A stretch of DNA of 46,291 nt from Planctomycetia bacterium. Its GTDB lineage: Bacteria; Planctomycetota; Planctomycetia; Pirellulales; UBA1268. Position 1 is the stretch's first letter; each line of letters begins with the position of its first letter. The notes under the pieces are model-generated. The model was not told the DNA's origin and searched no databases. It saw only the letters and a program-made list of their open reading frames with translations. Below, one piece after another: positions 1,202 through 41,452 of the stretch. The translations under genes and the position numbers were made by a program. The stretch covers positions 1 through 46,291 of the forward strand of contig JBAWVV010000001.1 of the NCBI GenBank assembly GCA_037147115.1, in the 5' to 3' direction.

Positions 1202-1337
1202 AGCTCGGATGGTTTCGCAGTGGCGGAGTCCGTCTGTGGTTGGGTCGGACCTCCGGTTCGGGCCGGGCTGCAGTAGTGTCTGTGGTGGTTGGATGGTCAG
1301 GTCCCTTCCCTTTGTTTGATCCCAGGTAGCGCTGTCC

Positions 1338-16384: not shown

Positions 16385-20725
<4,341 letters not shown>

Positions 20726-20797
20726 GAGACGTCTCCTTAGAAGAACCCTGATGGGCTGTTGAGGGTGGCGTTGGGGTCGCCGGGATCGGATGCGGTG

Positions 20798-20844
20798 GGA
20801 AAAAAACGGGAACCGGTGGGTGACACGGTTGCGTCACCCACCGG
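20798..20844 (-). terminator. Intrinsic-terminator-like hairpin plus U-run between rpoB and rpoC
   Basis: Perfect 12-bp stem CCGGTGGGTGAC / GTCACCCACCGG (20813-20824 / 20833-20844) with an 8-nt loop. On the sense (minus) strand it is followed by TTCCCGTTTTTTT (A7 at 20800-20806 on the + strand). It sits 22 nt after the rpoB stop. Confidence 0.45.
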
Positions 20845-20866
20845 GGTCGGCGGTAGGAAGGAGCGG

Positions 20867-23800
20867 TCAGAGCCGCCGCTTCTCAAGCGACATGTTGAGG
20901 GCCAGACCACGGATCTCGTTGGTGAGCACGTCGAAGCTCGCCGGGGTGCCGGCTTCGAGGGTGTTTTCCCCCTTTACCATGCTCTCGTAGATCTTCGTGC
21001 GCCCCTCGACGTCGTCGCTCTTGACGGTGAGGAGTTCCTGGAGGATGTAGGCAGCGCCGTAAGCCTCCAGAGCCCACACTTCCATCTCTCCGAACCGCTG
21101 GCCGCCGAACCGCGCCTTGCCCCCCAGCGGCTGCTGGGTGATGAGGGAGTACGGGCCGGTGGAGCGGGCGTGCACCTTGTCGTCGACGAGGTGGTGAAGC
21201 TTGAGCATGTAGATGTAGCCGACGGTCGTCTCCTGCTCGAGTCTCTCGCCGGTGCGGCCGTCGTAGAGTTGTGTCTTGCCATGCCGGGGGAGGTTCGCCT
21301 CTTCGAGAACGTCGTTGATCTCCTCCTCACTCGCTCCGTCGAACACCGGCGTGATCGCCTGGAAGCCGAGCACCTTTCCGGCCCAGCCAAGGTGGGTCTC
21401 GAGGATCTGCCCGACGTTCATGCGGCTCGGCACACCGAGCGGGTTCAGCAGGATCTGCACCGGTGTCCCGTCGGCAAGAAAGGGCATGTCTTCCTTGGGG
21501 AGGATCTTCGCGATCACACCCTTGTTGCCGTGGCGGCCGGCCATCTTGTCGCCGACGCTGATGGCCCGCTTGGCGGCGACGTACACCTTCACCATCTGGA
21601 GCACGCCGGGGCGGAGTTCATCACCGCGCTTCATGCTGTTGAGACGCCGTTCACGGGAGTCGATGGCATCCTCGACGGCAGGCCACATTGCCTTGTGGAT
21701 TTTTTCCACCTCGGGTTTGGCCTTCGGCGAGCGGAGATCGAGCTCCTCGATCCGGAACGCAGCGGCCCGCTCCGCCACCACCTTGTGCTCCTGATCGCGG
21801 ACCAGCGAGCTGCCGTCGACCGCCGTCAGCGGCTTTCCGATGGCCTTGCCGATCTCCTCGACCATCGCGCTGAAGCTCTCGGCAACGCGGGCATTTCCCT
21901 CGTTCTCGACCTCCTTGAGCTGCTTCTCGAACTCGCGGCGCTCGTCCTCCGAGAGGCTCATGCGACGCGAGAACTTCTCGGTGGCGATGACGATCCCCTC
22001 AACGCCAGAGGGCACCTCAAGGGAGTCGTTTTTCACGTCTTCGCCGGCCCGGCCGAAGATCGCGTGGAGGAGCTTTTCCTCTGGCGTGAGCTCAGTCTTG
22101 CTCTTCGGCGACACCTTGCCGACGAGGATGTCGCCGGAGCGGACGAAGGTGCCGATCTTGACGATGCCCCCTTCGTCGAGGTTATGGAGAGCACGCTCGC
22201 CAACGTTGGGGATGTCGCGGGTGAACTCCTCACGGCCAAGCTTCGTGTCGCGGATTTCAATGTCGTACTCCTCGATGTGGATCGAGGTGTAGACGTCGTC
22301 CTCAACCAGCTCCTCGCTGATGATAATCGCATCTTCGAAGTTGAATCCGTCCCAGGCCATGAAGCCGACGAGGACGTTGCGGCCGAGAGCCAGTTCGCCC
22401 TTGTAGATCGCGGCACCGTCAGCAAGCACCTCCCCCTTCTCGACCTTCTGGCCGAGATTGATGATCGGCTTCTGGTTCTGACACGTGCGCTCGTTGAGGC
22501 CGACGTACTTCCGCAGCCGGTAGATATCGGGGGCGACGATGCCGCCTGGCGAGACTTCGATCCGCTCGGCGTCGCAGTAAGTCACCGTACCCTTGCGGGC
22601 GGCACGGACGATGAGCCCAGAGTTGGCCGCAACGTCGCGCTCCATGCCGGTGGCCACGATCGGGGGTTCGGTGACCAACAGCGGCACGGCCTGCCGCTGC
22701 ATGTTGGAGCCCATCAACGCCCGGTTGGCGTCGTCATGCTCGAGGAACGGAATCAGACCCGCAGAAACGCCAACCATCTGGCTGGGGGCGACGTCGATGT
22801 AGCCCACATCCTCGGCCCTGACGAGGACGAAATCGCCGCGGTTGCGGGCGATGATGTTGTCCCCCTCGATCCTGCCATCGACAACGGGCGCATCGGCCGG
22901 CGCGAGCGTCGCATCATGCTCCTCGTCGGCCCGCAACCAGACAACGTCATCGGTCAGCCGGCACTTCGACACCTTTCGGTAGGGGGTGACGAGGAAGCCG
23001 TAGGAATCGACCCCGGAATAGATCGCGAGGCTCGAGATCAGGCCGATGTTCGTGCCTTCGGGCGTCTCGATCGGGCAGATCCGACCGTAGTGAGAGATAT
23101 GAACGTCGCGCACCTCGAAACCGGCTCGCTTGCGATTCAAGCCTCCCGGTCCGAGCGCCGAGAGCCGGCGTTCGTGGGTGAGCATTGACAGTGGATTCGT
23201 CTGGTCAACCACCTGCGAGAGCTCGCCACGACCAAAGAAATACTCGATGGCTGCGGAAATACTCTTGGGATTGATGAGCGAACGGGGCGTCATCTCCGTG
23301 ACGTCCTTGAGGCTCATCCGCTCCTGAACGGTGCGCCGGAGTTTCAGAAAGCCCTTGCGGAGTTCGTCGCTGGCCAGTTCATCGATCGTCCGCAGTCGGC
23401 GATTGCCGAGGTGATCGATGTCATCGACCTCGACCTCGTTCTCACCCTCGGAGAGAAGGAGCATGTACTTGATCGCAGCGATCAGATCGTCGGGGCGGAG
23501 CGTCATCTCGGTCTCGGGGACCGAAAGCCCGAGTTTCCGGTTGATGCGGAAGCGGCCGACGCGGCCGAGACGGTAGCGGTTGGTGTCCTTGAACTTCTCG
23601 TCGAACAGGGTCCGGGCCTTGTCGAGGGCCGGGGGATTGCCCGGCCGAAGCCGCTGGTAGATGCGGACGAGGGCATCCTGATGACTGGGTGAGACGCCGG
23701 TGCGGCGCTTCGATTCGTCGGCGTCCTCGCGGAGGCTATTCATGATGAGCGGCACCTTCTGCTCATCCATCACTTCCACCGCCGGAAGACCCGATGTGCA

Positions 23801-24640
23801 GATCAGTTCAGCCTGATCGTGCGAGATCTTGCAGCCGGCCTCGATGATGATCTCGCCGGCCCGCTCGTTTGGCGATCCGTCCTTGTGCTTGGAGGGATAG
23901 ACGATGTCGTCGACCGCAATCCGCCCCTCGATCTTGGGGACGTAACGCCCGCCATCTGCCTTTACTTTCTCCGGCTCGTAGAAGAGCTTGAGGATCTCGG
24001 CGTCGTGGGTGTACTTCTCGTCCATCGCCCGCAGGAGCGTCAGTGCGGAGAACTTTCCGCTCTGGTCGATGCGCACCTGGAGCGTGTCCTTCTTCGAAAC
24101 ATTGAGCTCAATCCAACTCCCGCGCTCTGGAATGATCCGGCAATTGTGGGTCTTGCGATCTGCCGATTCGGTGTCAGCCACAAAGTCGATACCGGGCGAG
24201 CGGTGCAACTGGCTGACAACGACACGTTCCGCACCGTTGATGATGAACTCACCGCCACCGAGCATGATGGGGATGTCGCCGAGATAGACCTCCTCCTCAA
24301 CTGGTTGGTCGCGCGTCAGTCGCAGCCACACGCGCAGCGGGCGACCGTAGGTGAGGCGCAACTGGCGGCATTCATCGGGATCGTAGCGGGGCTTCCCCAA
24401 CTCGTAGCGAACGTACTCGAGCTTAACGGTGCGATCGTAGCTTTCGATCGGGAAGATTTCCCGCAGAACACCTTCGATCCCCTCGTCTTTCCGCTTCAAC
24501 GACGGGGTGTCGTACTGGAGGAAGCGGTCGTAGAAACGGGTCTGGATTTCGGTTAGATCGGGAATCGCATGGCTTGCGCGGCTGCTTCCATAACGGCGGA
24601 TCTGGGTGGGCTGGAGGCGGCGAACGGCGCTTGTGGCCAT
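20867..24640 (-). CDS. rpoB: DNA-directed RNA polymerase subunit beta
   Basis: 1257 aa. Motifs: [46 protein letters not shown]. Confidence 0.97.
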
Positions 24641-28907: not shown

Positions 28908-29126
28908 GGTCGGTTCCGTCCGGCGCGGGCGCTCCGTCTGATGTACCAAGGTCTTGGTATGAGAATCACGAAGCTGGCGGGGCCGACCCCGCTGCTTTAC
29001 TCAAACCACGTTCGTCAAACCCCAATCGTCGAACCACGATGAGCAAACCAACCGGATTTTTTTGATCCAGACACTACTTGACGCAAACTATTTGGGACGT
29101 GGCCAAAGCGACCAGGTCCATCGAAG

Positions 29127-29199
29127 CAGGGGCGGCGGGAATCGAACTCGCAACCTCTGGTTTTGGAGACCAGCGCTCTGCCAATTGAGCTACGCCCCT
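29127..29199 (-). tRNA. tRNA-Trp (anticodon CCA)
   Basis: The reverse complement folds as a 73-nt cloverleaf: AGGGGCG acceptor, anticodon arm CTGGT-CTCCAAA-ACCAG, T-arm GCGAG-TTCGATT-CCCGC... The position between tuf and secE is canonical. CCA is not encoded. Confidence 0.9.
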
Positions 29200-29204
29200 G
29201 TGGG

Positions 29205-29236
29205 ACCAGGCGCCGGCCGTTTGGCCGGCGCCTGGT
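29205..29236 (-). other. 14-bp GC-rich hairpin between tuf stop and tRNA-Trp (processing/stability or terminator-like element without U-run)
   Basis: ACCAGGCGCCGGCC gttt GGCCGGCGCCTGGT, a perfect inverted repeat. It lies 23 nt after the tuf stop and 5 nt before the tRNA-Trp 5' end. Confidence 0.4.
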
Positions 29237-29259
29237 GCTTCATCGCACAGGATCCGTGT

Positions 29260-30459
29260 TCAGTCGAGGATCTTCGTCACGACGCCCGAGCCGACGGTCT
29301 TGCCACCTTCGCGGATGGCGAAGCGGACACCGTCGTCCATGGCGATCGGGACCATCAACTCGACTTCCATCTTCACGTTGTCGCCCGGCGAAACCATCTC
29401 GATGCCGCTCATGAGCTTCGTCGATCCGGTGACGTCGGTCGTCCGGAAGTAGAACTGCGGGCGGTAGCCGGCGAAGAACGGGGTGTGACGACCACCCTCC
29501 TCCTTCGAAAGCACGTAGACCTCGCACTCGAACTTCTTGTGAGGCTTGATCGAGCCCGGCTTGGCAAGCACCTGACCACGCTCGATGCCTTCGCGGGCGA
29601 TGCCACGCAGCAGGCAGCCTACGTTGTCGCCAGCCTGACCACGATCGAGAAGTTTCTTGAACATCTCGACGCCGGTGCAGGTCGTCTTTTCAGCCTTGTC
29701 CTTGAGGCCGATGATCTCGACTTCGTCGCCGACCTTCACCTCGCCACGCTCAATACGGCCAGTCGCCACCGTGCCACGACCTTCGATCGAGAACACGTCC
29801 TCAATCGCCATCAGGAACGGCTTGTCGAGCTCACGAACCGGCTCCGGGATGTAGGCATCGACGGCAGCAAGAAGCTCAGCAATACACTTGTTTTTCTCAG
29901 GGTCTTTAGGGCTGTCGTAGGCCGGCTTGCCAGCGCCACGAATGATCGGCACATCGTCGCCGGGGAACCCATACTTCGTCAGCAGTTCGCGGATTTCCAT
30001 CTCGACGAGGTCGAGAAGCTCCGGATCATCGACGAGGTCGACCTTGTTGAGGAAAACCACGAGCGCCGGCACGCCGACCTGCTTGGCAAGGAGGATGTGC
30101 TCCCGCGTCTGCGGCATCGGGCCGTCGGCGGCACTCACCACCAAGATCGCCCCGTCCATCTGGGCGGCACCGGTGATCATGTTCTTGATGAAGTCGGCGT
30201 GGCCCGGGCAATCGATGTGGGCGTAGTGCCGATTGTCGCTTTCGTACTCGACGTGGCTGACGGCGATGGTCACCGTCTTCGTGTCGTCGCGGACGGTGCC
30301 GCCCTTTGCGATATCGGCGTAGCTCTTCGCAACCGCCAGATTCTTGGCAGCCTGAACGGCCACCAGCGCGCCGGTGAGAGTCGTCTTGCCATGGTCGATG
30401 TGACCAATGGTGCCGACGTTGACGTGCGGCTTGCTCCGGTTGAACGTGTCCTTAGCCAT
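29260..30459 (-). CDS. tuf: Elongation factor Tu
   Basis: 399 aa. Begins [29 protein letters not shown], with DCPGHADF and NKVDLVDD. Confidence 0.97.
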
Positions 30460-30680
30460 GCTTGCTCCCTCGATCTTCCTCTCTGGTGTGTGGCTGCAGG
30501 CGGCGCCTGCCCTGGTCCCTGAAATCCTGCATCAGATCAAACTATCCGATCGATCGACGATGCCCCGTACGGCCAGGTCTGAACACGAAGCATCGATCGA
30601 TCTTGTGACGGGCGGCCTTCCGGAAGCCGGAAGGATGAATCTTTGGTTGAGGGAGCGATGTGGTCACGGCGACCGCTGGG

Positions 30681-30754
<74 letters not shown>

Positions 30755-30918
30755 GGTGTGCGTCGAGGCCTCGATGGACGGGCGCTTGAGCAGCGCGGCG
30801 TCGTCCCGGCGAGGACGCGGATCGGTCGATTGTGGCGGAATCGCTCCGTAAAAAAGGTGTCGGTGAGGGCGGTGTGACGGTGAGCGGGGGGACGTTGAGG
30901 ATCGGCGGCGGCCTGAAA

Positions 30919-30989
30919 AGCGGGTAGAGGGAATCGAACCCTCGTCAATAGCTTGGAAGGCTATCGCTCTACCATTGAGCTACACCCGC
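30919..30989 (-). tRNA. tRNA-Gly (anticodon TCC)
   Basis: 71-nt cloverleaf: GCGGGTG acceptor, anticodon arm ATAGC-CTTCCAA-GCTAT, T-arm GAGGG-TTCGATT-CCCTC. Confidence 0.9.
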
Positions 30990-31010
30990 GGTGCGGTCGT
31001 GCGGGCCCCG

Positions 31011-31067
31011 GCGGATGCCTCTTAACGCTGCGGATGCCACTGGTTTTAGCGGATGCCTCTTGGTGCT
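31011..31067. repeat. Three tandem 19-nt direct repeats (GCGGATGCC core) in the tRNA-Tyr/tRNA-Gly spacer
   Basis: gcggatgcctcttaacgct (31011-31029), gcggatgccactggtttta (31030-31048), gcggatgcctcttggtgct (31049-31067). Units 1 and 3 match at 16 of 19 positions. Confidence 0.8.
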
Positions 31068-31211
31068 GGCGGTGGTTGCTGGTTTGGAAGCGAATCGGCT
31101 TCAGAGCGTCTGACCGGCGACTCGGGCTAGAATTATCGACTTAAACGGGCAAAAGGGGCGCTGATCGTCAGGAACTTCGAAACCGGGGCTTGGGGTGGCA
31201 GAGGATAGAAA

Positions 31212-31293
31212 GTGGGGAGTGCAGGATTCGAACCTGCGAAGGCAGAGCCACTTGATTTACAGTCAAGCCCCTTTGACCGCTCGGGAAACTCCC
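31212..31293 (-). tRNA. tRNA-Tyr (anticodon GTA), long variable arm
   Basis: 82 nt. GGGGAGT TT CCCG AGCGGTCAAA GGGG..., anticodon arm CTTGA-CTGTAAA-TCAAG, T-arm GCAGG-TTCGAAT-CCTGC. It is close to E. coli tyrT in architecture. Confidence 0.9.
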
Positions 31294-31556
31294 CTCGTGT
31301 GATGGTGATATCGGTTGGGATCCAAATCTCCCCGAATCTAAACCTGCCGCAGGATCGCTACCGCTTTGATCGATTCAGCGCCACCGTTCATTCTCGGATC
31401 CGGAGCCGCCTTGGACGAGCATCCCATTCGGGAAACCGCGACCAATTCCACCCCGGCCGCGACCGTCGGGTAAAAGTTGGCAATTTCGAACAACCAGGCC
31501 CCGGTCGGACGAGCACTCGCTAGGAACTCGCTTGGAACCTCCCTGGAAATGGAGTG

Positions 31557-31629
31557 AGCTAGCGGCGGGAGTTGAACCCGCAACCACCTGATTACAAATC
31601 AGGTACTCTGCCAATTGAGCTACGCTAGC
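31557..31629 (-). tRNA. tRNA-Thr (anticodon TGT)
   Basis: 73-nt cloverleaf: GCTAGCG acceptor, anticodon arm CCTGA-TTTGTAA-TCAGG, T-arm GCGGG-TTCAACT-CCCGC. Confidence 0.9.
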
Positions 31630-31770: not shown

Positions 31771-33009
31771 TCAATCGCCGAAATTGACGACGAGAATCGA
31801 CACGTCATCGAGGAGGTCACCCCCTCCTGCGAGGGCCTTGGTCGAGGCCACGACGGCGTCCAGGGCGGCCTCCCCCGGTCGGGTCTGGGAGATGATCAGG
31901 TCGCCGAAGGCCTGGGGGGACCCCATCGAACCATCGGGACAGGGGATCTCGAAGGCACCGTCGCTGAAAATCCACAGCGAGGCCTCTGCCGGAATATCAA
32001 TCTCCCGAGCCGAGAACTCGAGCCCATCGATTGCTCCCAGGAGCGGGTTGTCGGAATCGAGGGGGATCGCTGCCATTCCCGCGGATCCGGATGCGGATCC
32101 GGGCGCGGGGTGGACGAGGAGGGCCGCGGGGTGCCCTCCGCCGGCCCAGCGCAGCCTGCGGCGGCGGCGGTCGTGGACCCCGTACCAGATCGTGAAGAAC
32201 ATGTCGTTGTGCCGCTCCATCGGAAAGGCTCGGTTCAGCGCCGTGAGGACGGCCGCCGGATCCCGAAAATCGGTGTTCGGCAGCGCCTCACCGCGGATGG
32301 CGTTGAGGGCCGACACGCTCAACAGGGCGGCGCCGACGCCGTGGCCGCAGACATCGAGCAGGTAGATGGCGACCTGGTCGTCGTCGAGGCGGTGATAGCC
32401 GAAGGCGTCGCCCCCGAGATCCGCCGACGGGATGAACCGCCAATCGGCGCGGATCCCCGCCATCTCGCCCGGTGGGGGGAGGAGCGAGCGGACATACCTG
32501 GCGGCGCTGGCGAGGTCGTTGGCAAGCATCTCGCGGCTGAGGCGGAGTTCCGCGAACGCTAGGTTTCGCTCGAGGAGGGCGACGTACCCGCGCGAATGAT
32601 GGCGGACGCGCGCCACCAGCTCGACCCGGTCGGGCAGCTTGACGAGGTAGTCGTTGGCTCCGAGTGCGAACGCCTCGGCCTTGACCGCCGGCTCTTCCTT
32701 CGTCGACAGGACAATGATCGGAAGATCCTGGAAGCGCTCGTCGGCGCGCATCCGGCGAAGCACTTCAAGACCGTCGACCTCGGGCATCACGAGGTCGAGG
32801 AGGACGACCGTCGGACCGATCTCGGCGGCCATGGTCAATGCCGACGCGGGCTCTCGGCAGTAGTGGAAATCGAGCAAGTCCTCCCCGGCGAGCATCCGCC
32901 GGACCGCCTCGCCGATGATCGGTTGATCGTCAACAAGGAGCACCACGCCCCGGCGCGGGGCGGTCGCCAGGAGAGGGGATGAGTGACGCTGGAAAAGTGG
33001 GGGATTCAT
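31771..33009 (-). CDS. Response regulator: receiver (REC) domain fused to PP2C/SpoIIE-type serine phosphatase (RsbU-like)
   Basis: REC motifs: VVLLVDDQPIIGEAVRRML, VVLLDLVMPEVDGLEVLRRMR, IIVLSTKEE, GANDYLVKLPD. PP2C/SpoIIE motifs: ADLGGDAFGYH, IYLLDVCGHGVGAALLS, WIFSDGAFE, DDVSILVVNF. Start taken as the ATG at 33009; an alternative GTG lies at 33072. Confidence 0.85.
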   Translation of the reverse strand: MNPPLFQRHSSPLLATAPRRGVVLLVDDQPIIGEAVRRMLAGEDLLDFHYCREPASALTMAAEIGPTVVLLDLVMPEVDGLEVLRRMRADERFQDLPIIVLSTKEEPAVKAEAFALGANDYLVKLPDRVELVARVRHHSRGYVALLERNLAFAELRLSREMLANDLASAARYVRSLLPPPGEMAGIRADWRFIPSADLGGDAFGYHRLDDDQVAIYLLDVCGHGVGAALLSVSALNAIRGEALPNTDFRDPAAVLTALNRAFPMERHNDMFFTIWYGVHDRRRRRLRWAGGGHPAALLVHPAPGSASGSAGMAAIPLDSDNPLLGAIDGLEFSAREIDIPAEASLWIFSDGAFEIPCPDGSMGSPQAFGDLIISQTRPGEAALDAVVASTKALAGGGDLLDDVSILVVNFGD

Positions 33010-33315
33010 CACGGCGACGATTCGCTGGGCACCGGTGGGGGGAGCGGGGAACAGCTGCTCCGAAACCACCACAGCCTACCAAAAACATCAGCTTGCCCCC
33101 TATTTCCCCAGGGGAGGCGGGGATGATTCTCCGCGCCGTTTTCCGCTTCGCCGTGGCGACCGCTTTCCCAATCGAAAGGGGGTCGGATTCACCGCGGATG
33201 AATCAGACTGCCGATTCCTGTCATACTCGCGCTTCCGGGGCTTGGCGGCCACGCCGGATGGCCCGATCTCGCGTCCCCGGCGGCACAGTTCCGACCTTCA
33301 ATCTCCGGAACACCG

Positions 33316-36300
33316 ATGGGGACATCACCCGCATCTTCAATGTCCCCTGGGCCACCCTCCGCAGGCACCGCGATGCACGGAGGACACCAAAAAACGCCTC
33401 CTGTGAACGTCGCGGTGAGCACATCGGCCGCCCTTGAGTCTGACGCTCCATCCAGCGCTGCTCGGGAAGATGCGATCCGTCACGCCATCGCCCACGCCGC
33501 CCATTATCTCCCGGCCCAGGGGCCGATCGGCGTCTTCATCCATCACAACACGCTCCACGCCTTCGAGGAGCAGCCGTTCGAGCAGGCGGTCCTCCATGCG
33601 GCGCGGTTGTTCGGCACCGAGCCGTTCCTCTCCGAGGCACGCTACCGGGCGGAACTGAAGCGGGGGCGGATCCGGTTTGCCGACGTCGAGGCGGTCCTCG
33701 ACGCCGACCTCGGTGGGCGCGCCGGGGAATTGCTCGCTGGAGGCAGAATAAAGCTACGCGATCTTTGCCTGTCACTCATGGAACATCCGCTTTGTCAGGA
33801 GGATGACTCGGCCGTCCGCTGGACGCTCACGGAACATGGCGAAACCGTGGAGGACCCCGCCACCGCGGAGCTGTGGCATGCCTGCGTCGAGGCGGTGACG
33901 CTCTCCCGGGCCTCGATCGCAAGTGTCATTCCCCCGGTGCGGCTCCGGGATCTGATCGTGGCGGTGGAACCGTCGGTCGACACCGACGCCCTCGTCCATC
34001 CGTTGCTGATCCGTGTCTGTGCTGCCTACCTCGACCAGGGGGTGGCGTCGTGGCCGATGCCGGGAAGGGATCGGGGGCTGCTGGCGGCGGTGGCCGAACT
34101 CTACTCCCGACCGGGCGGGCCAACCGAGCCTTGGACTGCCCGGCTCGCGGCGGCGCTCGCGGAGGTCCGCGGCCGCCGGCCTGTCGAGGTCATCGCCACG
34201 GAGCTCGACCGGATCGGTATCCTTCCGACGTTTCAGGAGGAATACATCTGCCGTTCCCTGCTGGCCCTGCGGGGCTGGGCCGGGATGATCCGGCAATTCG
34301 AGGAGCGGCCCGATCGAGTGCCCGTGGTCGCTGTTCCGGCCACGCTCGAGGACTTCCTCGCCCTGCGATTGGTGTTTGATCGGGTTGCTGCGGAATCGGT
34401 GGCCCCGCGCTTCGGGCGTCCCGACGATCTCCCCGGACTGTGGGTCGAACTGCGCGACCGTCATCCTTCCCGACGAGGCCCGGGGAGCGTGGCGCGGGCC
34501 TTTCTGCTCTGCCAGGTGGCCCAGCATCTCGGCCTCGCCGCCCACGACATCCTCCCCCTCGACGACAACGAAATCGTCCGGCTGGAGCGCGCGATCCACG
34601 GCTTCGACGGCCTCACGCGCCGGCGGTTGTTTCATCTTGCGTATGAACGCCGTCACCGGATCCAGATCCTCGACGCGCTCGTCGCCAACGGTGCGTTGGC
34701 GACGCCTCCCAGCCCGGACCGCCCCCGTCTCCAGATGGTGTTTTGCATTGACGAGCGGTGCGAGAGTTTTCGCCGGCATGTGGAGGAACAAGGGGCCGAA
34801 TACGAGACGTTCGGCACCGCCGGATTCTTTGCCGTGCCGATGTACTACCGCGGCATCGACGATTGGATGGCCAAGCCCCTCTGTCCGATCGTGGTTCGAC
34901 CAGCGCATACGGTGGTTGAGGTCCCGAAGGACGCCGCCATCGCATCGCACAAGTTGCGGCAGGCGGTGCGCCGTCGCCTGGGGCAGATCGTCGGCAGTGT
35001 CTCCAGCGGCTCCACGACCCTCGTCCGCGGAGGCCTGTTCACGGCCATCGGCGGGGCGTTGGCGGCCGTCCCGCTGGTGGCCCGGGTGGCGTTTCCGCAG
35101 CTCACCGCCTGGCTCGGGCGACGCGTCGCCCAGGTGGCCAGGATTCCCACCCGGCTGGAGCTTGAACGCCACGACGATTCCCGCTTGCCAGATGGCACAA
35201 GCCCCGGTTTCGATCTGGCCGAGATGACCGCGATCGTCCGCCGCGTGCTTGAGGATATCGGGCTCACCGACCGTTTCGCGCGGCTCGTGGCGATCATTGG
35301 GCATGGTTCGTCGAGCCGCAACAATCCCCATGAGAGTGCCTACGATTGCGGCGCCTGCGGAGGGGGACGTGGCGGTCCGAATGCACGGGCCTTCGCCCAG
35401 ATGGCCAACGACGCCCGTGTCCGGGAGCGGCTCGCGGCGACGGGGTTGGTGATTCCGGCCGACTGCCGCTTCCTCGGCGGGATGCAGGACACCTGTGCGG
35501 ACAGCGTCGAGTGGTACGACGCCGATCTCGTGCCCCACGATCACCGGGACGATCTGGCGAGACTCATTGCGGTGATCGACGTGGCGCGGAAGGGCAACGC
35601 GCATGAACGCTGCCGGCGGTTTGAATCGGCCCCGCTCGATATCGAGCCCGCGGAAGCGCTGCGGCACGTCGAGGGGCGATCGGGGGACCTCGCCCAGGTG
35701 CGCCCCGAACTCGGCCACGCCACCAACGCGGTGTGTGTCATCGGCCGTCGGTGGCGCACGCGCGGGCTGTTTCTCGATCGTCGCGCGTTCCTCGTCTCCT
35801 ACGATCCCCGGGCTGACGAGGACGGCGCGATCCTCACCCGCACCCTGGCCGCGGTTGGACCGGTGGGCGCTGGCATCAACCTGGAGTATTTCTTCTCCTC
35901 GATCGATCCGGTCGGGTACGGCAGTAGCACGAAGCTCCCGCACAACATCAGTGGCCTGATTGGCGTCATGGATGGGCATGCCAGCGACCTGCGCACCGGG
36001 TTGCCGTGGCAGATGGTCGAGATTCATGAGCCGGTTCGGCTGCTGATCGTGATCGATGCCCCCCAGGAGCAGATCTTGGCCGCAGCCGAACGAATCCCCG
36101 CCGTGAAGCAACTCGTCGTCAATCGCTGGGTGCAATTGGCGGCCTGGGATCCACAGGGAGAGGCGATGGCGGTTTTCGAGAACGGCCGGTTCGTGCCCTT
36201 CGTGCCCGAGATGGCGCAGATCCCGGTCGTGCCCGGATCGGCAGACTGGTACAGAGGGCACCGCGGCCATCTTCCGCCGGCCCGCGTCACGCGGGAAACA

Positions 36301-36372
36301 GTTGCGGGCTCCCTCCGGCCACGCCGGAAGACCGACGGACGACCGACCACGTCCGGGAGCCAGAACGCATGA
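33316..36372 (+). CDS. dabA: DabA-type (DUF2309/UPF0753) inorganic-carbon pump subunit, beta-carbonic-anhydrase-like
   Basis: Family hallmarks: YLPAQGPIGVFIHHNTLHAFE, VFCIDERCESFRRHVEEQGAEYETFGTAGFF (Cys/Asp at ~34744-34752), IIGHGSSSRNNPHESAYDCGACGGGRGGPNAR (His ~35302, Cys ~35347), DLRTGLPWQMV. The start is uncertain (33316, 33373, or GTG at 33403/33415). Confidence 0.85.
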   Translation: MGTSPASSMSPGPPSAGTAMHGGHQKTPPVNVAVSTSAALESDAPSSAAREDAIRHAIAHAAHYLPAQGPIGVFIHHNTLHAFEEQPFEQAVLHAARLFGTEPFLSEARYRAELKRGRIRFADVEAVLDADLGGRAGELLAGGRIKLRDLCLSLMEHPLCQEDDSAVRWTLTEHGETVEDPATAELWHACVEAVTLSRASIASVIPPVRLRDLIVAVEPSVDTDALVHPLLIRVCAAYLDQGVASWPMPGRDRGLLAAVAELYSRPGGPTEPWTARLAAALAEVRGRRPVEVIATELDRIGILPTFQEEYICRSLLALRGWAGMIRQFEERPDRVPVVAVPATLEDFLALRLVFDRVAAESVAPRFGRPDDLPGLWVELRDRHPSRRGPGSVARAFLLCQVAQHLGLAAHDILPLDDNEIVRLERAIHGFDGLTRRRLFHLAYERRHRIQILDALVANGALATPPSPDRPRLQMVFCIDERCESFRRHVEEQGAEYETFGTAGFFAVPMYYRGIDDWMAKPLCPIVVRPAHTVVEVPKDAAIASHKLRQAVRRRLGQIVGSVSSGSTTLVRGGLFTAIGGALAAVPLVARVAFPQLTAWLGRRVAQVARIPTRLELERHDDSRLPDGTSPGFDLAEMTAIVRRVLEDIGLTDRFARLVAIIGHGSSSRNNPHESAYDCGACGGGRGGPNARAFAQMANDARVRERLAATGLVIPADCRFLGGMQDTCADSVEWYDADLVPHDHRDDLARLIAVIDVARKGNAHERCRRFESAPLDIEPAEALRHVEGRSGDLAQVRPELGHATNAVCVIGRRWRTRGLFLDRRAFLVSYDPRADEDGAILTRTLAAVGPVGAGINLEYFFSSIDPVGYGSSTKLPHNISGLIGVMDGHASDLRTGLPWQMVEIHEPVRLLIVIDAPQEQILAAAERIPAVKQLVVNRWVQLAAWDPQGEAMAVFENGRFVPFVPEMAQIPVVPGSADWYRGHRGHLPPARVTRETVAGSLRPRRKTDGRPTTSGSQNA

Positions 36373-37811
36373 CGATTCCCGCTGTGTTGGTACCAGCGTG
36401 TCCGCTGTTCGGCTCGTTCGGCGTTGCGACCGCCTCGGCCCATGCGATCGTCGCGACGCTCGTCGTCCTCCAGCTCGCGGCGCCGGCCCTGACCCTCGTC
36501 CTCGTCGGCTTGCCGGCGCTCCTCGATCGGCCCTTGTCGGAGCGTGTTACCACCCGCCTGGTCGGTTCGGCGTTTACGGTGGCGTTCCTCGCCGGACTGA
36601 CGACCCTCATGGTGCTCTCGACGCGGGGATTCGCCCCGGAGCAGGTCCACCTCGGCACCTGGTTCTCGGTCGGGCACCACGACGCCACCATCGACCTCGT
36701 GGCGGACGGATTGTCGGTGCCGTATGTCTGCTTCTCGACCGGCTTGTGTGCGCTGGTCAATGCCTTCGCCGGGAAATACCTCCACCGCGAGCCCGGGTTC
36801 ACCAGGTTCTTCGTCCTCCTGGCGCTGTTTGGCACCGGGATGAATCTGATGGTGCTCGCCGGGAGCATCGACGTGCTGTTCGCAGGGTGGGAGTTCCTCG
36901 GCATTTCCTCGACGATGCTGATCGCCTTCTTCCACGAGCGCACCAACGCCCTCAAGGCCGCCCTGCGGGCTTTCACCACCTACCGGATCTGCGATGTCGG
37001 CCTGCTCGCCGCCGGCGTCATGATCCACCGGGCGGTCGGGTCAGGGGATTTTGAACGGCTCTTCGGTGGCGTCTGGCCGAACGCCCACTCGCTCGTCTCC
37101 CCTGGAAACGCGACACTCGTGTCGCTCCTGCTGGTGTTCGCGGCGATGGGAAAGAGCGCCCAGGTGCCCTTCTCAAACTGGCTGCCGCGGGCGATGGAGG
37201 GGCCGACCCCGTCGAGCGCGATCTTCTACGGCGCCTTGTCGATCCACGCCGGTGCCTACGTGCTGCTGCGGTGCGAAGCGCTCCTCGATGCGGCGCCGCT
37301 GGCCCGGTTCGTGCTCGTCGCCATCGGAGTCTCCACGGCGGTTCATGCCGCTCTCGTCGGACGCGTTCAGACCGATCTCAAGAGCATGCTCGCCTATGCC
37401 TCAATGACCCAGTCGGGAATCATCTTCGCCGAGATCGGTCTCGGATTCCGGGTTGTAGCGCTGGTCCATATCGTCAGCCACGCGATCCTCCGCAGCCTCC
37501 AGATCCTCCGCTCCCCCTCGGCGCTCCATGACCGGCATGAGCTCGAGGCGGCGCTCGGCGGACATCCCGGCGCCGCGTCCTGGTCGGCCGTCCGGCTCCT
37601 GCCGGAAAGCGCGCAAACCTGGCTCTACCGGGTGGCCCTCGACCGCGGCTTCGAGGAGATGGCGCTGTCGCGATTCGTAGTGGGGCCGGTATGGAGGTTT
37701 CTCGAATGGCTCGGCGCGGCGGAGCTGCGCTGGATCGACTGGCTGGGCACGCGCCCGGAGGATCGGGCGCGGGACCTTGTCGAGCGGCGGATGCACGGGA
37801 GGTCGCGTTGA
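36369..37811 (+). CDS. dabB: NuoL/ND5-type proton-conducting membrane subunit (DabB-like)
   Basis: The ATG overlaps the dabA stop (ATGA, 36369-36372). 480 aa, polytopic. Contains LFAGWEFLGISSTMLIAFFH (TM5 Glu) and AAMGKSAQVPFSNWLPRAMEGPTPSSAIFYGALSIHAGAY (TM7 Lys plus the broken-helix motif). Confidence 0.85.
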   Translation: MTIPAVLVPACPLFGSFGVATASAHAIVATLVVLQLAAPALTLVLVGLPALLDRPLSERVTTRLVGSAFTVAFLAGLTTLMVLSTRGFAPEQVHLGTWFSVGHHDATIDLVADGLSVPYVCFSTGLCALVNAFAGKYLHREPGFTRFFVLLALFGTGMNLMVLAGSIDVLFAGWEFLGISSTMLIAFFHERTNALKAALRAFTTYRICDVGLLAAGVMIHRAVGSGDFERLFGGVWPNAHSLVSPGNATLVSLLLVFAAMGKSAQVPFSNWLPRAMEGPTPSSAIFYGALSIHAGAYVLLRCEALLDAAPLARFVLVAIGVSTAVHAALVGRVQTDLKSMLAYASMTQSGIIFAEIGLGFRVVALVHIVSHAILRSLQILRSPSALHDRHELEAALGGHPGAASWSAVRLLPESAQTWLYRVALDRGFEEMALSRFVVGPVWRFLEWLGAAELRWIDWLGTRPEDRARDLVERRMHGRSR

Positions 37812-39292
37812 ATCTCGATGGCCAAGTCATCCCGCTGGTGGCGGCGCTGACGGCCGCGATCGCAGCGCCGTTGGCGGCGGCCCTCCACGTCGGCCGCGGC
37901 GGGAGCCAGGCGGGCCCGCGGACGCCGGCGATCGTGAGCCTGCTGGTGTCGTTGGTCGCCAGCCTGACGATCACCCGCGCTTGGATGAGCGGGCCGGAGG
38001 TCACGCTCGAGTTGGGGCAGCGGCTCGGTGGCGGCTACCTCGTCCATGTCGATGGGCTGACGGCCGTCCTCCTTCCCTTTGTGGCGCTGGTGGAACTGGC
38101 GATCGTGATGGTCGCACCGAAGCGGTTCCTCGACGGCCCGGCGACGGTGCGGATCCTCCTCGGCGCCGCCACGACGCTCGCCCTGTTTGCCACGTCCCAT
38201 CCGCTCGTCCTGATCGTGGCCTGGGTGGTGACAGCACTCCCCACCTGGTCGAGCACACGGGCGACGCCGGGCGGGCAGATCGCAGCCCGGGTCTACGCGA
38301 TCATCATGACGATCGCCGTTGCCTGCATGACCGTCGGCACGCTGATGATGATCGCCGACCCGCCGTGGGAGGCCGGGGGAGGCGCCGTCGGCGCCTCCGG
38401 CGGCTGGCTGGTCGCCCTGGCGGTGCTGGTCCGGAAGGGGATCGTGCCGTTTCACTCCTGGTATCCGGCGCTGTTCCGCGGCGCGCCGATGTCGACGGCG
38501 CTGGCCGCCACGGTTCCCCAGATCGCCTCCTACACCGCCGTGCGGCTGTTCTTCGGTCATGCCGACCATGGCGATGGCGTGGGGGCAGAGCTGATCGTCC
38601 TCTCGCAGCTAGCACTGCTGACAGCCACCTACGGCGCGGCCCTGGCGCTGGTGCAGCGCGATCTGCGCGGGCTCATCGGGACCTTGGCGATGAGCCAGTC
38701 GGCGCTCGTCCTGGCAGGACTGGCCGGCAAGCTACCGATGGAGCTCAACGGCGCCTTCTGCACCTGGATCTCGAGCGGGCTGGCGCTGACGGGGCTGGGG
38801 CTTGTCGGTTGGGCCCTCGAGAGTCGGGCCGGGCCGCTGTCGCTGGAATCACCGCAGGGCCGCTTCGCCGACGCTCCGCTCCTGGCGGCCTTCTTCCTCC
38901 TCTTTGGGCTCTCGACCATCGGCCTGCCCGGGACGCTGTCGTTCGTGGCCGACGATCTCCTCGTGTCGGGGAGCCTCGACGAACAGCTCCACGCCGGGTT
39001 GCTCGTGATCGCGGCGACGGTCCTCTCCGCGATCGCGGTGATGCGTGCCTGGCTGATGGTCTTCGGCGGGCCGTCGAGCGTTGACGGTCCGCGCCACCAC
39101 GTTCTCCCCCGTGAACGGATCGCGCTGACGGCCCTGTTCGCCACGATCGTCCTCCTCGGACTCTGGCCCGCGCCGCTGGTGCGGGAATTGGAACGCGCCG
39201 GGAGCGAACTGCTCGGCGTGCCGGTCGAGGCGCACGGCCGTGGCGCCGAGGCGACCGGGCAGGCAGACCATGCCAACGGCAGCGGTTCCTGA
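37808..39292 (+). CDS. Second antiporter-like subunit, divergent NuoM/NuoN (ND4/ND2)-type
   Basis: The TTG at 37808 overlaps the previous stop (TTGA), with GGGAGG at 37797-37802. About 494 aa, polytopic. Contains VRKGIVPFHSWYPALFRGAPMSTALAATVPQIASYTAVRL and LRGLIGTLAMSQSALVLAGL, typical of the Proton_antipo_M family. Confidence 0.75.
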   Translation: MNLDGQVIPLVAALTAAIAAPLAAALHVGRGGSQAGPRTPAIVSLLVSLVASLTITRAWMSGPEVTLELGQRLGGGYLVHVDGLTAVLLPFVALVELAIVMVAPKRFLDGPATVRILLGAATTLALFATSHPLVLIVAWVVTALPTWSSTRATPGGQIAARVYAIIMTIAVACMTVGTLMMIADPPWEAGGGAVGASGGWLVALAVLVRKGIVPFHSWYPALFRGAPMSTALAATVPQIASYTAVRLFFGHADHGDGVGAELIVLSQLALLTATYGAALALVQRDLRGLIGTLAMSQSALVLAGLAGKLPMELNGAFCTWISSGLALTGLGLVGWALESRAGPLSLESPQGRFADAPLLAAFFLLFGLSTIGLPGTLSFVADDLLVSGSLDEQLHAGLLVIAATVLSAIAVMRAWLMVFGGPSSVDGPRHHVLPRERIALTALFATIVLLGLWPAPLVRELERAGSELLGVPVEAHGRGAEATGQADHANGSGS

Positions 39293-39399
39293 CTCGCCGA
39301 TTCGGCCACACCGGGGACCGGGACTCGCTGATCGGCACAATTCGGAATCCCTACGATGGCGGGGTTTGATCAGCCCCCGGAATCATTTACCGTTCGGCT

Positions 39400-39434
39400 C
39401 CGAGATTTCGTCGAGGAATCCGGGCCGAGATTTC
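39400..39434 (+). repeat. 10-nt perfect direct repeat CCGAGATTTC x2 (25-nt period) in the leader of the PEP-CTERM gene
   Basis: Copies at 39400-39409 and 39425-39434. The second copy ends 17 nt before the ATG at 39452. Confidence 0.8.
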
Positions 39435-39451
39435 CTTCCAGCGAGGTGTTC

Positions 39452-41452
39452 ATGTCCTGGATGCACGCGTGTCGAGCGTTGGTCGGGGTTCGCGTTGTGA
39501 CCGCGGCCCTGGTCTTCGGGGCGACGATGCCCGTTCAGGCCGAGCCGGTGCCGAACAACACCGCATGGACCGGGGCCTCGGGTTCCGGCGGGATCGGCTC
39601 GTGGGGCGTGGCCGGCAACTGGCAGACCGACGTCACGACGAACGTCGTGCCTGATGCCACGCTCAACGCCATCCTCCCCGGTGGCCCGACGAACCAAACG
39701 ATCAACCTCGGCTCGAGCGCGCAGGCCAAGTCACTCTTTCCCCAGGCCGCCGGCTACACGATCCAGAACGGTGATCTGACCCTCGCCGACCAACTCTGGC
39801 TCAACGAGACTTCCGGCACGACCTCGCTCCGGCTTTCCAGTAACGGCTCCAACGGCACCGTCTCGGTGAGCACGCCGCGCGTGACGATCGGCGCCGACGC
39901 CGCGAGCGTGCGGAACGACATCTCGCTCCAGACGCTCACCGGCGGCACGGCAAGCCTCACCGCCACCGACAAGATCACGATCGGCTACGACGGTAACTTC
40001 AACTCGTTGATGGTCAACTCCGGTGGCACCAGTGCCCCCGTTGCCAACCCCGGCGGCGCCGCGACGATCACCGCCCCGACGATCCAGATGAGTGTCGCGG
40101 CGACGGCCGGATCGCGCACCGAATGGTTTGCCACCGATGGCTTTAACTGGCTCGGCACCTACTCTTCCGACGCCGTCGTCAACACCTCAAACCTCGTCGT
40201 TGGCGTCGCCGGCGATCAAGGCGTGGCAGAAAACATCGGCGGCAGGTGGAACGTCGCCAACACCACCCTCGGTGAGCAGGCCACGTCGGCCTACAACTAT
40301 CTCGCCGTGGCCGGCAACGGCACCTACACCAACTCCGGCGCCTTCACCGTCGGCTTGAGCGGCAACAACAATAGGGTGTATGTCGGTAACGCGGGCTGGG
40401 TGAGTGCCCCAAACGGGACACTGACGCTGACGGGCACCTCCGATGTCGTCATCGGGGCGAACGCCGCGGCCCACGACAACGCGATCTACGTCGGTGTCGG
40501 CAGCACGTTCTCGTCGCCGAACAACATCGTTGTCGGACAGTCTGGCTCCTGGAACTATTTCGAAGTCGCAGATGGGAGCACGGCGACGTCCGGCGGTGTA
40601 CGGATCGGCGTCGACGCCGGTGCCGGGTTTAACGCCGTCGGGTTGGCCCGAAGCTCTTGGACGATGAACGGTGCGGTCCGCGTCGGCGACGCCGGCAGCG
40701 ACAACGGCTTCTACATCGTCGGTGGCACGGCCACGCTCACCGAGCCGGGGAAAAACTTTTACGTCGGCTACAACAAGAGCGCGAGCCGAAACATCCTCGT
40801 CCTCGACGGCCCGACGGCGAAGCTCGAGGTCAAGGCGACCGGGGCCGATGTCGTGATCTCGGCGAATGCCGCCGGTTCGGGGGCGAATGCCACTGGCAAT
40901 GTCGCCGTCGTTCTAGGGGCCACGATCGATGCCACGCGGGTCTTGGTGGGCGACGGCGGTTCGCTCCAAGGCATCGCCGGCACGATCACCGGCAATGTCC
41001 TCGTCGGCAGCGGCGGTGTCATCGCCCCAGGCCTCCTGGATTATGTGGCGATCGGGTCGCTCGCGATCGGAGGCAATCTCGATCTTTCGCAGCAGGGTGG
41101 GGGGCGGATCGACATCGATTTCGCTGGAAACCAAGCCGACATGATCACCGTCGGTGGGATCCTCGATACGACCAACGCCACGTTGCACTTCGACGTTGGA
41201 ACAGGGGTCGTCAACGGCAACTACGTGATTGCCAGCTACGGGAGTCTCGTCGGCACCTTCGCGACGATCGAAGGGCTTCCGGCGGCTTGGAGCATCGATT
41301 TCAACTATCTGGGCCTCAGTCAGATCGTCGTGACGGCCGTTCCGGAGATCGATCCGAGCTCCTTCGGCAGCGCTTTGGCCCTGGCGATCGGGGCTCTCGG
41401 CCTCGTCGAGCGTCGGGCTTACCGGTCCCGTCGCCGCTCGGACATCGCCTGA
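39452..41452 (+). CDS. Secreted beta-helix/passenger-like repeat protein with C-terminal PEP-CTERM-type (VPEIDP variant) exosortase sorting signal
   Basis: ATG at 39452, with GAGG 6 nt upstream. Signal peptide MSWMHACRALVGVRVVTAALVFGATMPVQAEP. Long Gly/Asn/Thr/Val-rich repeats follow. The C-terminal tail is VPEIDPSSFGSALALAIGALGLVERRAYRSRRRS, that is motif, TM helix and Arg cluster. Confidence 0.75.
   Translation: MSWMHACRALVGVRVVTAALVFGATMPVQAEPVPNNTAWTGASGSGGIGSWGVAGNWQTDVTTNVVPDATLNAILPGGPTNQTINLGSSAQAKSLFPQAAGYTIQNGDLTLADQLWLNETSGTTSLRLSSNGSNGTVSVSTPRVTIGADAASVRNDISLQTLTGGTASLTATDKITIGYDGNFNSLMVNSGGTSAPVANPGGAATITAPTIQMSVAATAGSRTEWFATDGFNWLGTYSSDAVVNTSNLVVGVAGDQGVAENIGGRWNVANTTLGEQATSAYNYLAVAGNGTYTNSGAFTVGLSGNNNRVYVGNAGWVSAPNGTLTLTGTSDVVIGANAAAHDNAIYVGVGSTFSSPNNIVVGQSGSWNYFEVADGSTATSGGVRIGVDAGAGFNAVGLARSSWTMNGAVRVGDAGSDNGFYIVGGTATLTEPGKNFYVGYNKSASRNILVLDGPTAKLEVKATGADVVISANAAGSGANATGNVAVVLGATIDATRVLVGDGGSLQGIAGTITGNVLVGSGGVIAPGLLDYVAIGSLAIGGNLDLSQQGGGRIDIDFAGNQADMITVGGILDTTNATLHFDVGTGVVNGNYVIASYGSLVGTFATIEGLPAAWSIDFNYLGLSQIVVTAVPEIDPSSFGSALALAIGALGLVERRAYRSRRRSDIA

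Follow-up and report, generated by a model that had tools for sequence, protein, structure and literature searches.

Background and closest described systems

Autotrophs other than cyanobacteria take up CO2 mainly through DAB pumps, which many heterotrophs and pathogens possess as well and which could be used to engineer carbon concentration in crops and industrial hosts. We describe here a DAB-type operon in a stretch of 46,291 nucleotides from a Planctomycetia bacterium (GenBank assembly GCA_037147115.1, contig JBAWVV010000001.1, positions 1 to 46,291; the whole stretch is called the window below), in which dabA and dabB are followed by a third gene, referred to as gene 3 or 'long DabC'. The product of gene 3 is predicted to have the complete fold of a NuoM-type membrane subunit, the canonical proton-path residues of that fold are replaced in it, and its conserved C-terminal half is, on profile comparison, homologous to DabC, the small third subunit of DAB1.

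It is known from cryo-electron microscopy (cryo-EM) of the T. albus complex that DAB1 is a heterotrimer of DabA, DabB and DabC (bioRxiv 10.64898/2026.05.01.722082; 'the DAB1 structure paper' below). The premise from which the initial annotation of the window set out, that characterised DABs consist of DabA and a single DabB, is therefore outdated; a third DAB1 gene is mentioned also by the 2018 DAB preprint and the 2026 DAB2 paper. According to the DAB1 structure paper, DabC is small, matches no Pfam family and is essential. Its structure aligns with the NuoL-proximal half of the NuoM helices, hydrophobic residues occupy the proton positions, and no water chain is present; the role and origin of DabC are an open point in that paper. 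In the DAB1 structure, the channels by which CO2 enters DabA face the cytosol. For Aquificae (T. albus, Aquifex and Hydrogenobacter), DabC is listed as fused to DabB (Supplementary Table 6 of the DAB1 structure paper), a natural covalent link of NuoL-like and NuoM-like parts.

The other relevant description is the 'clade C' of the 2017 COGNAT study (Klimchuk et al., PMC5700660), in which ybcC (COG3002/DUF2309) lies 5' of a nuoL homologue together with COG1008 (NuoM) and, frequently, COG0659 (SulP). The authors of that study surmised that the product was an exergonic enzyme exporting ions, and that additional membrane subunits would move additional ions. This catalogue and the known DAB1 heterotrimer reduce the novelty that the initial annotation had seen in the locus, the composition of which was already on record as clade C. 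What does seem to be new is the full-length NuoM fold predicted for the third subunit, its homology to DabC, the deep and distinct lineage with DabB substitutions of its own, and the existence of relatives without dabA. Full-text literature searches found no paper that analyses the long third subunit.

Identity and recurrence of the three genes

The product of the first gene matches PF10070 along the entire profile (positions 1-747 of 747, E = 4e-236) in the Pfam search that the initial annotation had suggested as a check on DabA, and it matches PDB entry 9rd0_A (DabA2) in a PDB sequence search (E = 1e-70). The second product, said earlier to be of the NuoL type, contains PF00662 and PF00361 and has its best NCBIfam score with NuoL, in agreement with the PDB sequence search; since it aligns only to positions 4-355 of the 615 in the NuoL profile, it is truncated. 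In the third product, PF00361 is limited to residues 200-406 and the best NCBIfam match is NuoM (TIGR01972, E = 9e-33), again in the C-terminal half only; the PDB sequence search likewise gives NuoM, which bears out the NuoM type first assigned to it. The open reading frames (ORFs), junctions and motifs of the initial annotation are all present where it had placed them, and reading the sequence confirmed the start/stop overlaps at both gene junctions and the Shine-Dalgarno-like element ahead of gene 3 (Table 1). The frame of gene 3 is open from 37691, the TTG at 37808 being the likely start.

Relatives of gene 3 were sought in one genome per GTDB species and are encoded by at least 508 of these species genomes, and synteny was counted in the best 80. 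A DabB homologue lies directly 5' of gene 3 on the same strand in every one of these 80 loci, and a DabA homologue lies 5' of dabB in all 75 loci for which the contig is long enough. The best 80 loci come from Planctomycetota, Acidobacteriota, Myxococcota, Gemmatimonadales, Spirochaetales, Alphaproteobacteria and Binataceae, that is, from at least seven phylum-level groups, and the same trio is also found in the loci L001, L003, L088, L089 and L102. Recurring as it does in 80 loci outside this genome, the order of the three genes is far beyond chance. The co-conservation of the third gene with dabAB, on which the idea of a three-gene DAB variant had been made to depend, is thus found in relatives, and gene identities and recurrent order together bear that idea out.

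The gene 3 family comprises 1199 proteins at E <=1e-3 (among the word-sharing candidates that were scored) and 191 clusters at 50% identity with E <=1e-30, mostly of 430-520 residues; the nearest named relative in the homology search belongs to a Planctomycetia metagenome-assembled genome (MAG). The frame is intact in 84 loci, with a median length of about 482 residues, and the commonest dabB/gene 3 junction, in 38 of the 84, is the 4-nucleotide start/stop overlap. In about 12 of 90 clade-C loci, SulP genes directly adjoin the operon, either 5' of dabA or 3' of gene 3 (Table 1). A Saccharothrix genome has SulP and the trio with a gene 3 product of only 367 residues and no Pfam match, and in a gammaproteobacterial MAG with SulP and the trio the product has 419 residues. 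The natural length variants (494, approximately 420, approximately 367 and, in DabC, approximately 250 residues) are suited to probing the role of the third subunit. Half-size forms within the gene 3 family, suggested by matches of approximately 260-330 residues from query residue ~190, were rejected: P0256, from a contig of 1.3 kb, is a fragment, with relatives of 420-450 residues.

Fold and proton path of the third subunit

The AlphaFold2 model of the gene 3 product, built with a 46-sequence alignment, has a predicted local distance difference test (pLDDT) score of 92.3 and a predicted template-modelling (pTM) score of 0.92. Foldseek with this model gave NuoM, NdhD3, MrpD and ND4 over the full length (~490-515 columns) at TM-scores of 0.80-0.85, and its matches also include a MrpA-MrpD model. 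As modelled, gene 3 encodes a complete 14-helix NuoM/MrpD fold, broken helices included. Since the Foldseek matches extend over the full length, the N-terminal half appears to keep the fold even though Pfam misses that half.

Residue states were read from an L-INS-i alignment of E. coli NuoM and NuoN with 108 family representatives. NuoM E144, the conserved Glu of the fifth transmembrane helix (TM5), corresponds to V140 of gene 3, as the initial annotation had judged by eye; the family has Ala, Ile, Val, Thr, Leu or Cys at this position, which is never acidic in the 108 representatives. NuoM K234 in TM7 becomes R209 (Arg in 106 of 108), K265 in TM8 becomes Q238 (Gln in 62, His in 14, Met in 13, Leu in 8), and H322 becomes Q297 (Gln in 83, His in 11). 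S323 takes the place of H348 (Ser in 40, Val in 20), where NuoN likewise has Ser, and D382 that of E407 in TM12 (Glu in 49, Gln in 15, Ala in 12, Gly in 7, Asp in 5). The non-pumping role that had been suggested from the TM5 position is upheld by this alignment, and is strengthened because TM7 Lys has changed to Arg and TM8 Lys to Gln besides the loss of the TM5 Glu.

Conservation is unevenly distributed in the family. Mean pairwise identity is 23% in residues 10-200 versus 38% in residues 201-470, and of 48 strongly conserved positions only 3 are in residues 1-200, the other 45 being in 201-470, so that the family shows which half of the third subunit matters. The ratio of nonsynonymous to synonymous substitution rates (dN/dS) of gene 3 is 0.11-0.19 among relatives with 79-90% identity, and the gene is under purifying selection.

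Relationship to DabC and the position of clade C

For comparison we used bona fide DAB1 loci. That of Nitrobacter hamburgensis plasmid 1 has dabB (565 residues), dabC (253 residues), dabA1 (1037 residues) and then PII, and adjoins cbbLS and carboxysome genes; two further DAB1 loci share this layout (DAB1 set L090-L092). The N. hamburgensis plasmid (L090 1-2165 and 3198-9084) has DAB1 twice in tandem, the PII genes of the two copies being identical, just 5' of LysR, cbbLS and carboxysome genes. The N. hamburgensis DabC has no Pfam match, and lengths in the DabC family are uniformly 241-270 residues.

When a DabC profile (38 sequences) was compared by hhalign with a profile of 46 gene 3 homologues, the two were matched at 96.2% probability (E = 2.6e-9, 229 columns), with DabC 13-245 colinear with gene 3 residues 212-453. 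By this profile-profile criterion the conserved C-terminal half of gene 3 is homologous to DabC. In complex I, TM12 of NuoM faces TM5 of NuoL, and for this reason the C-terminal half of gene 3 is the NuoL-proximal half. Such a NuoL-proximal placement of the DabC-like half agrees with the published structural alignment of DabC with NuoM (bioRxiv 10.64898/2026.05.01.722082). DabC and gene 3 were not significantly similar by pairwise BLASTP or single-sequence hhalign, and the PDB sequence search, in which DAB2 (9rd0) is present, matched no DabC chain.

A neighbour-joining tree of DabB (427 columns, 100 bootstraps), rooted with E. coli NuoL as the one outgroup, recovers clade C as monophyletic in 100/100 replicates and DAB1 in 98/100. 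DAB1 groups with the two-gene DAB2/Mps types in 87/100 and with clade C in 0/100, which rules out clade C as the sister of DAB1. Since DAB1 groups with DAB2, a simple orthology of DabC and gene 3 inside a single sub-lineage does not hold. DabA gives a similar picture, clade C being split from the rest with 100/100 support; clade-C DabA sequences share on average 50% identity with one another, 31% with those of DAB1 and 29% with those of DAB2 types. As judged from these comparisons, clade C branches deeply and on its own among DAB systems. That a homologue of DabC with full size and NuoM fold occurs in seven or more phylum-level groups points to the origin of DabC, and we hypothesize, from a distance tree with one outgroup, that the ancestor had a full NuoM-like partner, which DAB1 shortened to DabC and DAB2 gave up.

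DabA and DabB

The residues of the beta-carbonic-anhydrase-like zinc site, which the initial annotation had reported as retained, are indeed intact: C477, D479, R481, H663 and C678 are invariant in 32 DabA sequences from three DAB types (22 of clade C, 3 of DAB1 and 7 of the DAB2 type). DabA has a dN/dS of 0.13 in comparison with L102. Within its motif HESAYDC, E673 and D677 correspond to E704 and D708 of T. albus DabA, residues that bridge DabA to DabB (bioRxiv 10.64898/2026.05.01.722082); the T. albus counterpart motif, YESALDCGACGG, was read from primers for codon-optimised genes in the DAB1 paper supplement.

DabB of the window comprises approximately TM1-11 plus a conserved non-membrane tail of about 100 residues, and no hydrophobic segment is found in residues 381-480 (none after residue 380). 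The proton-path residues E175 (in GWEFLG), D209, K262, H367 and H371 are kept. Clade-C DabB proteins have fixed changes relative to NuoL, with H254 of TM8 replaced by Tyr (Y287) and K342 by Arg (R375), each in 22 of 22 sequences, and they lack the NuoL TM12 Lys/Asp segment; the DabB proteins of DAB1 and DAB2 retain His and Lys at the H254 and K342 positions. H387 and R389/H390 stand 12-15 residues beyond R375, and in T. albus DabB the residues H328 and R331 have the same spacing beyond K316. As these residues and DabA E673/D677 match the T. albus pattern, the DabA-DabB coupling device looks conserved. The clade-C features, namely Tyr for His in TM8, Arg for K342 and the missing TM12 segment, are natural variants on which models of proton coupling may be tested.

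Relatives without dabA

The closest relatives of the locus, in five independent metagenome assemblies (L097-L101), have no dabA at this position. Their gene 3 is 90-92% identical to that of the window, and they share the synteny with tuf and with the neighbouring response regulator described below. In L097 about 445 nucleotides stand in place of window positions 33030-36417, with no DabA remnant. All three of the dabA-less loci compared (Table 1) keep the last ~20 nucleotides of dabA, which carry the ribosome-binding site (RBS) and start of dabB, and an upstream element, GCCGATTCCTGTCATACT, is retained in L098 and L101; these retained sequences indicate a clean excision, and dabA was probably lost in a single excision event. 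Between dabA-less genomes (dS 0.41-0.57), dN/dS is 0.08-0.14 for dabB and 0.13-0.14 for gene 3, and neither gene contains stops. These are metagenome contigs, and either dabA is encoded elsewhere in the genomes or the membrane pair works without DabA. The dabA-less sister lineage is in effect a natural test of the membrane pair working alone.

Proposed function and alternative explanations

In our view it is reasonably probable that the operon encodes a vectorial carbonic anhydrase of clade C driven by the proton-motive force (PMF), in which the third subunit conducts no protons and acts as a structural or allosteric partner. The three genes would form one translationally coupled operon. DabA, with its buried Cys-Asp-His-Cys zinc site, would turn CO2 of the cytoplasm into bicarbonate. 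DabB, with its tail in the cytosol, would admit protons and drive a conformational cycle that lets hydration run in one direction only, a mechanism proposed also for DAB1 and DAB2. The gene 3 product would no longer conduct protons and would most likely lie against the TM5 face of DabB, in the manner of NuoM against NuoL, its N-terminal half keeping the fold while evolving freely. The bicarbonate likely feeds anaplerotic carboxylations in a heterotrophic host, as for MpsAB/DAB in other heterotrophs, and the flanking SulP genes may be counted as an inorganic-carbon context for the DAB reading. The identities of the genes, their residue states, the predicted fold, the co-conservation and the homology to DabC are direct results of the analysis. 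Complex formation, docking geometry, the non-pumping role and the physiological use are those parts of the scheme that we infer.

Several observations weigh against this proposal or its premises. The near-invariant Arg at TM7, together with a TM12 position that is acidic or Gln in approximately 64% of the family, means that a residual ion or charge-relay role may exist for gene 3. The closest relatives without dabA hold dabB and gene 3 under purifying selection, which fits poorly with gene 3 as a mere scaffold of a DabA complex unless dabA sits elsewhere in the genome. The link to DabC comes from one profile-profile comparison, made without a canonical NuoM profile as control, and the DabC profile matches single sequences weakly (E = 0.022 for gene 3 of the window and 0.0045 for the Saccharothrix form, with 0.19 for NuoM, 0.23 for NuoN and 0.37 for DabB), so DabC may be no closer to the gene 3 family than to NuoM generally. 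The DabB tree, moreover, puts DAB1 with DAB2 and not with clade C.

It might be supposed that the third subunit itself translocates ions, as a second active module, so that the complex moves two per cycle by analogy with complex I. This would be in the spirit of the COGNAT proposal that more membrane subunits move more ions (PMC5700660); the full 14-helix fold with its broken helices is retained, TM7 Arg is near-invariant and Glu, Asp or Gln is frequent at TM12, and a partner could give an exit path to a clade-C DabB that has no NuoL TM12 Lys/Asp segment. We nevertheless judge it decidedly unlikely. The TM5 position never carries an acidic residue, the Arg of TM7 is non-titratable, the TM8 Lys and connecting His are mostly Gln, the region of the N-terminal half-channel is the least conserved (23% mean identity and 3 conserved positions), and the homologous DabC has hydrophobic residues at its proton positions and no water chain. 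The loss of these same residues might instead be taken as a sign that an ancestral NuoM/MrpD gene is decaying here and that the third gene, as what is left of it, no longer has a function, as might the poorly conserved N-terminal half and the fall in length to 419 and 367 residues in some lineages and ~250 in DAB1. This is hardly credible for a gene that has an intact frame in 84 loci (median ~482 residues), a dN/dS of 0.11-0.19, 45 strongly conserved positions in the C-terminal half, a confidently predicted fold, conserved translational coupling and, in DabC, an essential homologue. Replacement of charged proton-path residues by hydrophobic or neutral ones across the family could also suit a hydrophobic conduit bringing CO2 to DabA from the membrane or periplasm, comparable with the gas channel proposed through NdhF3 in NDH-1MS, an idea summarised in the DAB1 structure paper (bioRxiv 10.64898/2026.05.01.722082); NdhD3 of NDH-1MS (6tjv_D) also ranks high among the structural matches. 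Such a conduit is very unlikely given that DAB2 works with DabA and DabB alone, that CO2 enters DAB1 by channels on the cytosolic side of DabA and that CO2 crosses membranes freely.

The relatives without dabA are the basis for a different kind of explanation, according to which DabB and the NuoM-like subunit form an autonomous two-subunit membrane module, comparable with the MrpA/MrpD pair, and DabA is an add-on that can be lost. Absence of dabA from the locus in five independent assemblies, retention there of the upstream element and dabB RBS, and the intact state of both genes (dN/dS 0.08-0.14 at dS 0.41-0.57) are all compatible with this, as is the presence of MrpD and the MrpA-MrpD model amongst the Foldseek matches. 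It appears unlikely, however, because dabA is present in 75 of 75 informative loci across at least seven phylum-level groups, as well as in the window, L102, L001 and L003, because dabA could be elsewhere in the dabA-less genomes, and because gene 3 is without the canonical transport residues. In a broader form, which we regard as rather unlikely, the pair of DabB and a full-length NuoM-like subunit is itself the functional module, either as a relic of a MrpA/MrpD- or NuoL/NuoM-like DAB ancestor or as a repurposed hydrophobic conduit, and DabA is a detachable head. Were this true, DabC of DAB1 would be the last remnant of an ancestral second antiporter subunit that DAB2 has lost wholly.

Genomic setting

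Coordinates of the features are collected in Table 1. The window has a GC content of approximately 0.60-0.70, as in a high-GC planctomycete-like chromosome, and the long antisense ORFs over dabA, dabB and gene 3 are most likely high-GC artefacts. Divergent from the operon is a gene for a response regulator fused to a PP2C/SpoIIE phosphatase (RR-PP2C), which is syntenic with the operon in L001, L097, L098, L099, L101 and L102, comprising close and more distant planctomycete relatives; its product is a possible candidate regulator of the operon. The intergenic element upstream of dabA is possibly a promoter element, and a scan for the sigma-70 consensus and for intrinsic terminators gave nothing above expectation. 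On the planctomycete contig L001 (532 kb), RR-PP2C and dabA are separated by three genes of the PF10057 (MpsC/DUF2294) family and one for CsrA (1017-3261); the window has no DUF2294 or CsrA genes between the corresponding two genes. A DUF2294 gene is found 3' of dabA on a Staphylococcus plasmid (L093 6050-6412).

The region 5' of the operon encodes, from Pfam matches, an exosortase, UvrD, PolX and an FGE-sulfatase-domain protein, and contains a cluster of tuf and tRNA genes as well as two long ORFs on the minus strand that are probably rpoC and rpoB. The DAB operon thus adjoins a core housekeeping block, a synteny common to L097, L098 and L101. Genes for a PEP-CTERM-like protein, a HerA/DUF87-like ATPase and PurU lie 3' of the operon. 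The PEP-CTERM-like protein, which is encoded at the opposite window end from the exosortase, occurs in the closest relatives (663-666 residues) and is absent from L001, L003 and L102. RuBisCO, carboxysome and PII genes were not found among the ORFs examined in the 46-kb window, nor were NDH-1 core genes, and there is no SulP match in the window.

Table 1. Features of the DAB operon, its surroundings and the loci compared with it
Feature	Sequence	Position	Strand	Remarks	Basis
exosortase (EpsH) gene	window	89-1201			Pfam
rpoC, rpoB (probable)	window	16385-24640	-	two long ORFs, 1446 and 1257 residues
tuf and tRNA cluster	window	29126-31629		tRNAs for Trp, then Thr, Gly, Tyr, Thr; upstream of operon
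response regulator fused to PP2C/SpoIIE phosphatase	window	31771-33072	-	divergent from operon	PF00072 + PF07228
upstream element GCCGATTCCTGTCATACT (putative promoter element)	window	33211-33228	+	RR-dabA intergenic region; kept 5' of dabB in dabA-less L098 and L101
dabA	window	33316-36372	+	1018-residue DabA (DUF2309), cytoplasmic beta-carbonic-anhydrase-like subunit	PF10070
antisense ORF over dabA (example; such ORFs reach 832 residues)	window	33772-36270	-	most likely artefact
zinc-site motif 1, FCIDERCE	window	34741-34764	+	from residue 476; C477, D479, R481
zinc-site motif 2, HGSSSRNNPHESAYDCGACGG	window	35302-35364	+	from residue 663; H663, C678, C681; includes E673, D677
ATGA	window	36369-36372	+	dabA stop overlapping dabB start
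dabB	window	36369-37811	+	480-residue truncated NuoL-like subunit	PF00662 + PF00361
GGGAGG, Shine-Dalgarno-like	window	37797-37802	+	5 nucleotides 5' of gene 3 TTG
TTGA	window	37808-37811	+	dabB stop overlapping gene 3 start
gene 3 ('long DabC')	window	37808-39292	+	494-residue membrane subunit, predicted NuoM/MrpD fold	PF00361, AlphaFold2, Foldseek
DabC-homologous C-terminal half of gene 3	window	38441-39166	+	residues 212-453; region carrying conserved positions	hhalign
PEP-CTERM-like protein gene	window	39356-41452		698 residues, no Pfam match, PEP-CTERM-like C-terminus; between gene 3 and DUF87 ATPase gene
dabA-less junction	L097	7035-7615		cf. window 33030-36417
dabA-less junction	L098	5345-5562		cf. 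window 33030-36417
dabA-less junction	L101	5295-5568		cf. window 33030-36417
SulP-flanked locus	L088	1484-8104		also L027, L036, L039, L050, L057, L061, L066, L067
SulP-flanked locus	L089	1045-8260

Comparison with known systems

With NuoM/ND4, NuoN/ND2 and MrpD, gene 3 shares the predicted 14-helix fold with broken helices, and its best sequence matches are to NuoM profiles. It differs from NuoM, NuoN and MrpD in that the TM5 Glu, TM7 Lys, TM8 Lys and connecting His are replaced and in that it lies outside a nuo or mrp operon. The cyanobacterial NDH-1MS and NDH-1MS' complexes (NdhF3/NdhD3/CupA and NdhF4/NdhD4/CupB) resemble the proposed arrangement in having a hydration subunit on a pair of NuoL-type and NuoM-type subunits, and NdhD3 of NDH-1MS (6tjv_D) is one of the top structural matches to gene 3 (TM-score 0.83). 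However, CupA and CupB are unrelated to DabA, the pair functions within a redox-driven NDH-1, and NdhD3 is from a canonical pumping family.

The two-gene systems DAB2/MpsAB (H. neapolitanus DabA2B2, PDB 9rd0; S. aureus MpsAB) have in common with the window the DabA family, the zinc site, a NuoL-like partner aligned over TM1-11 and a proposed function in PMF-coupled CO2 hydration. They have no third antiporter-like subunit, their DabA is shorter (~800-855 residues) and their gene order is dabB-dabA, often with LysR upstream, whereas dabA is first in the window.

DAB1 is similar in its three subunits, its long DabA (~1020-1045 residues) and NuoL-like DabB, a NuoM-related third subunit without proton-path residues, and the conserved zinc site and coupling motifs. 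The third subunit of DAB1 has, however, only ~250 residues and no Pfam match, compared with 494 residues, 14 predicted helices and PF00361 in gene 3. The order in DAB1 is dabB-dabC-dabA-PII, beside RuBisCO and carboxysome genes, and in the window dabA-dabB-gene 3; DabB of DAB1 has ~560 residues, with His in TM8 and Lys at the K342 position, and that of the window 480 residues, with Tyr and Arg and without the TM12 segment. DAB1 hosts are chemolithoautotrophs (amongst them H. neapolitanus, with Hneap_0907-0909 as the DAB1 genes), whereas clade C is found in heterotroph-rich phyla. The closest correspondence is with clade C of COGNAT. That paper listed the neighbourhood only, before DAB function was known, with no analysis of residues, fold or DabC; a SulP gene, which it gives as frequent and not obligatory, is found in some members and not in the window. 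The gene order and composition, with dabA, a nuoL homologue and COG1008, are the same as those of the window.

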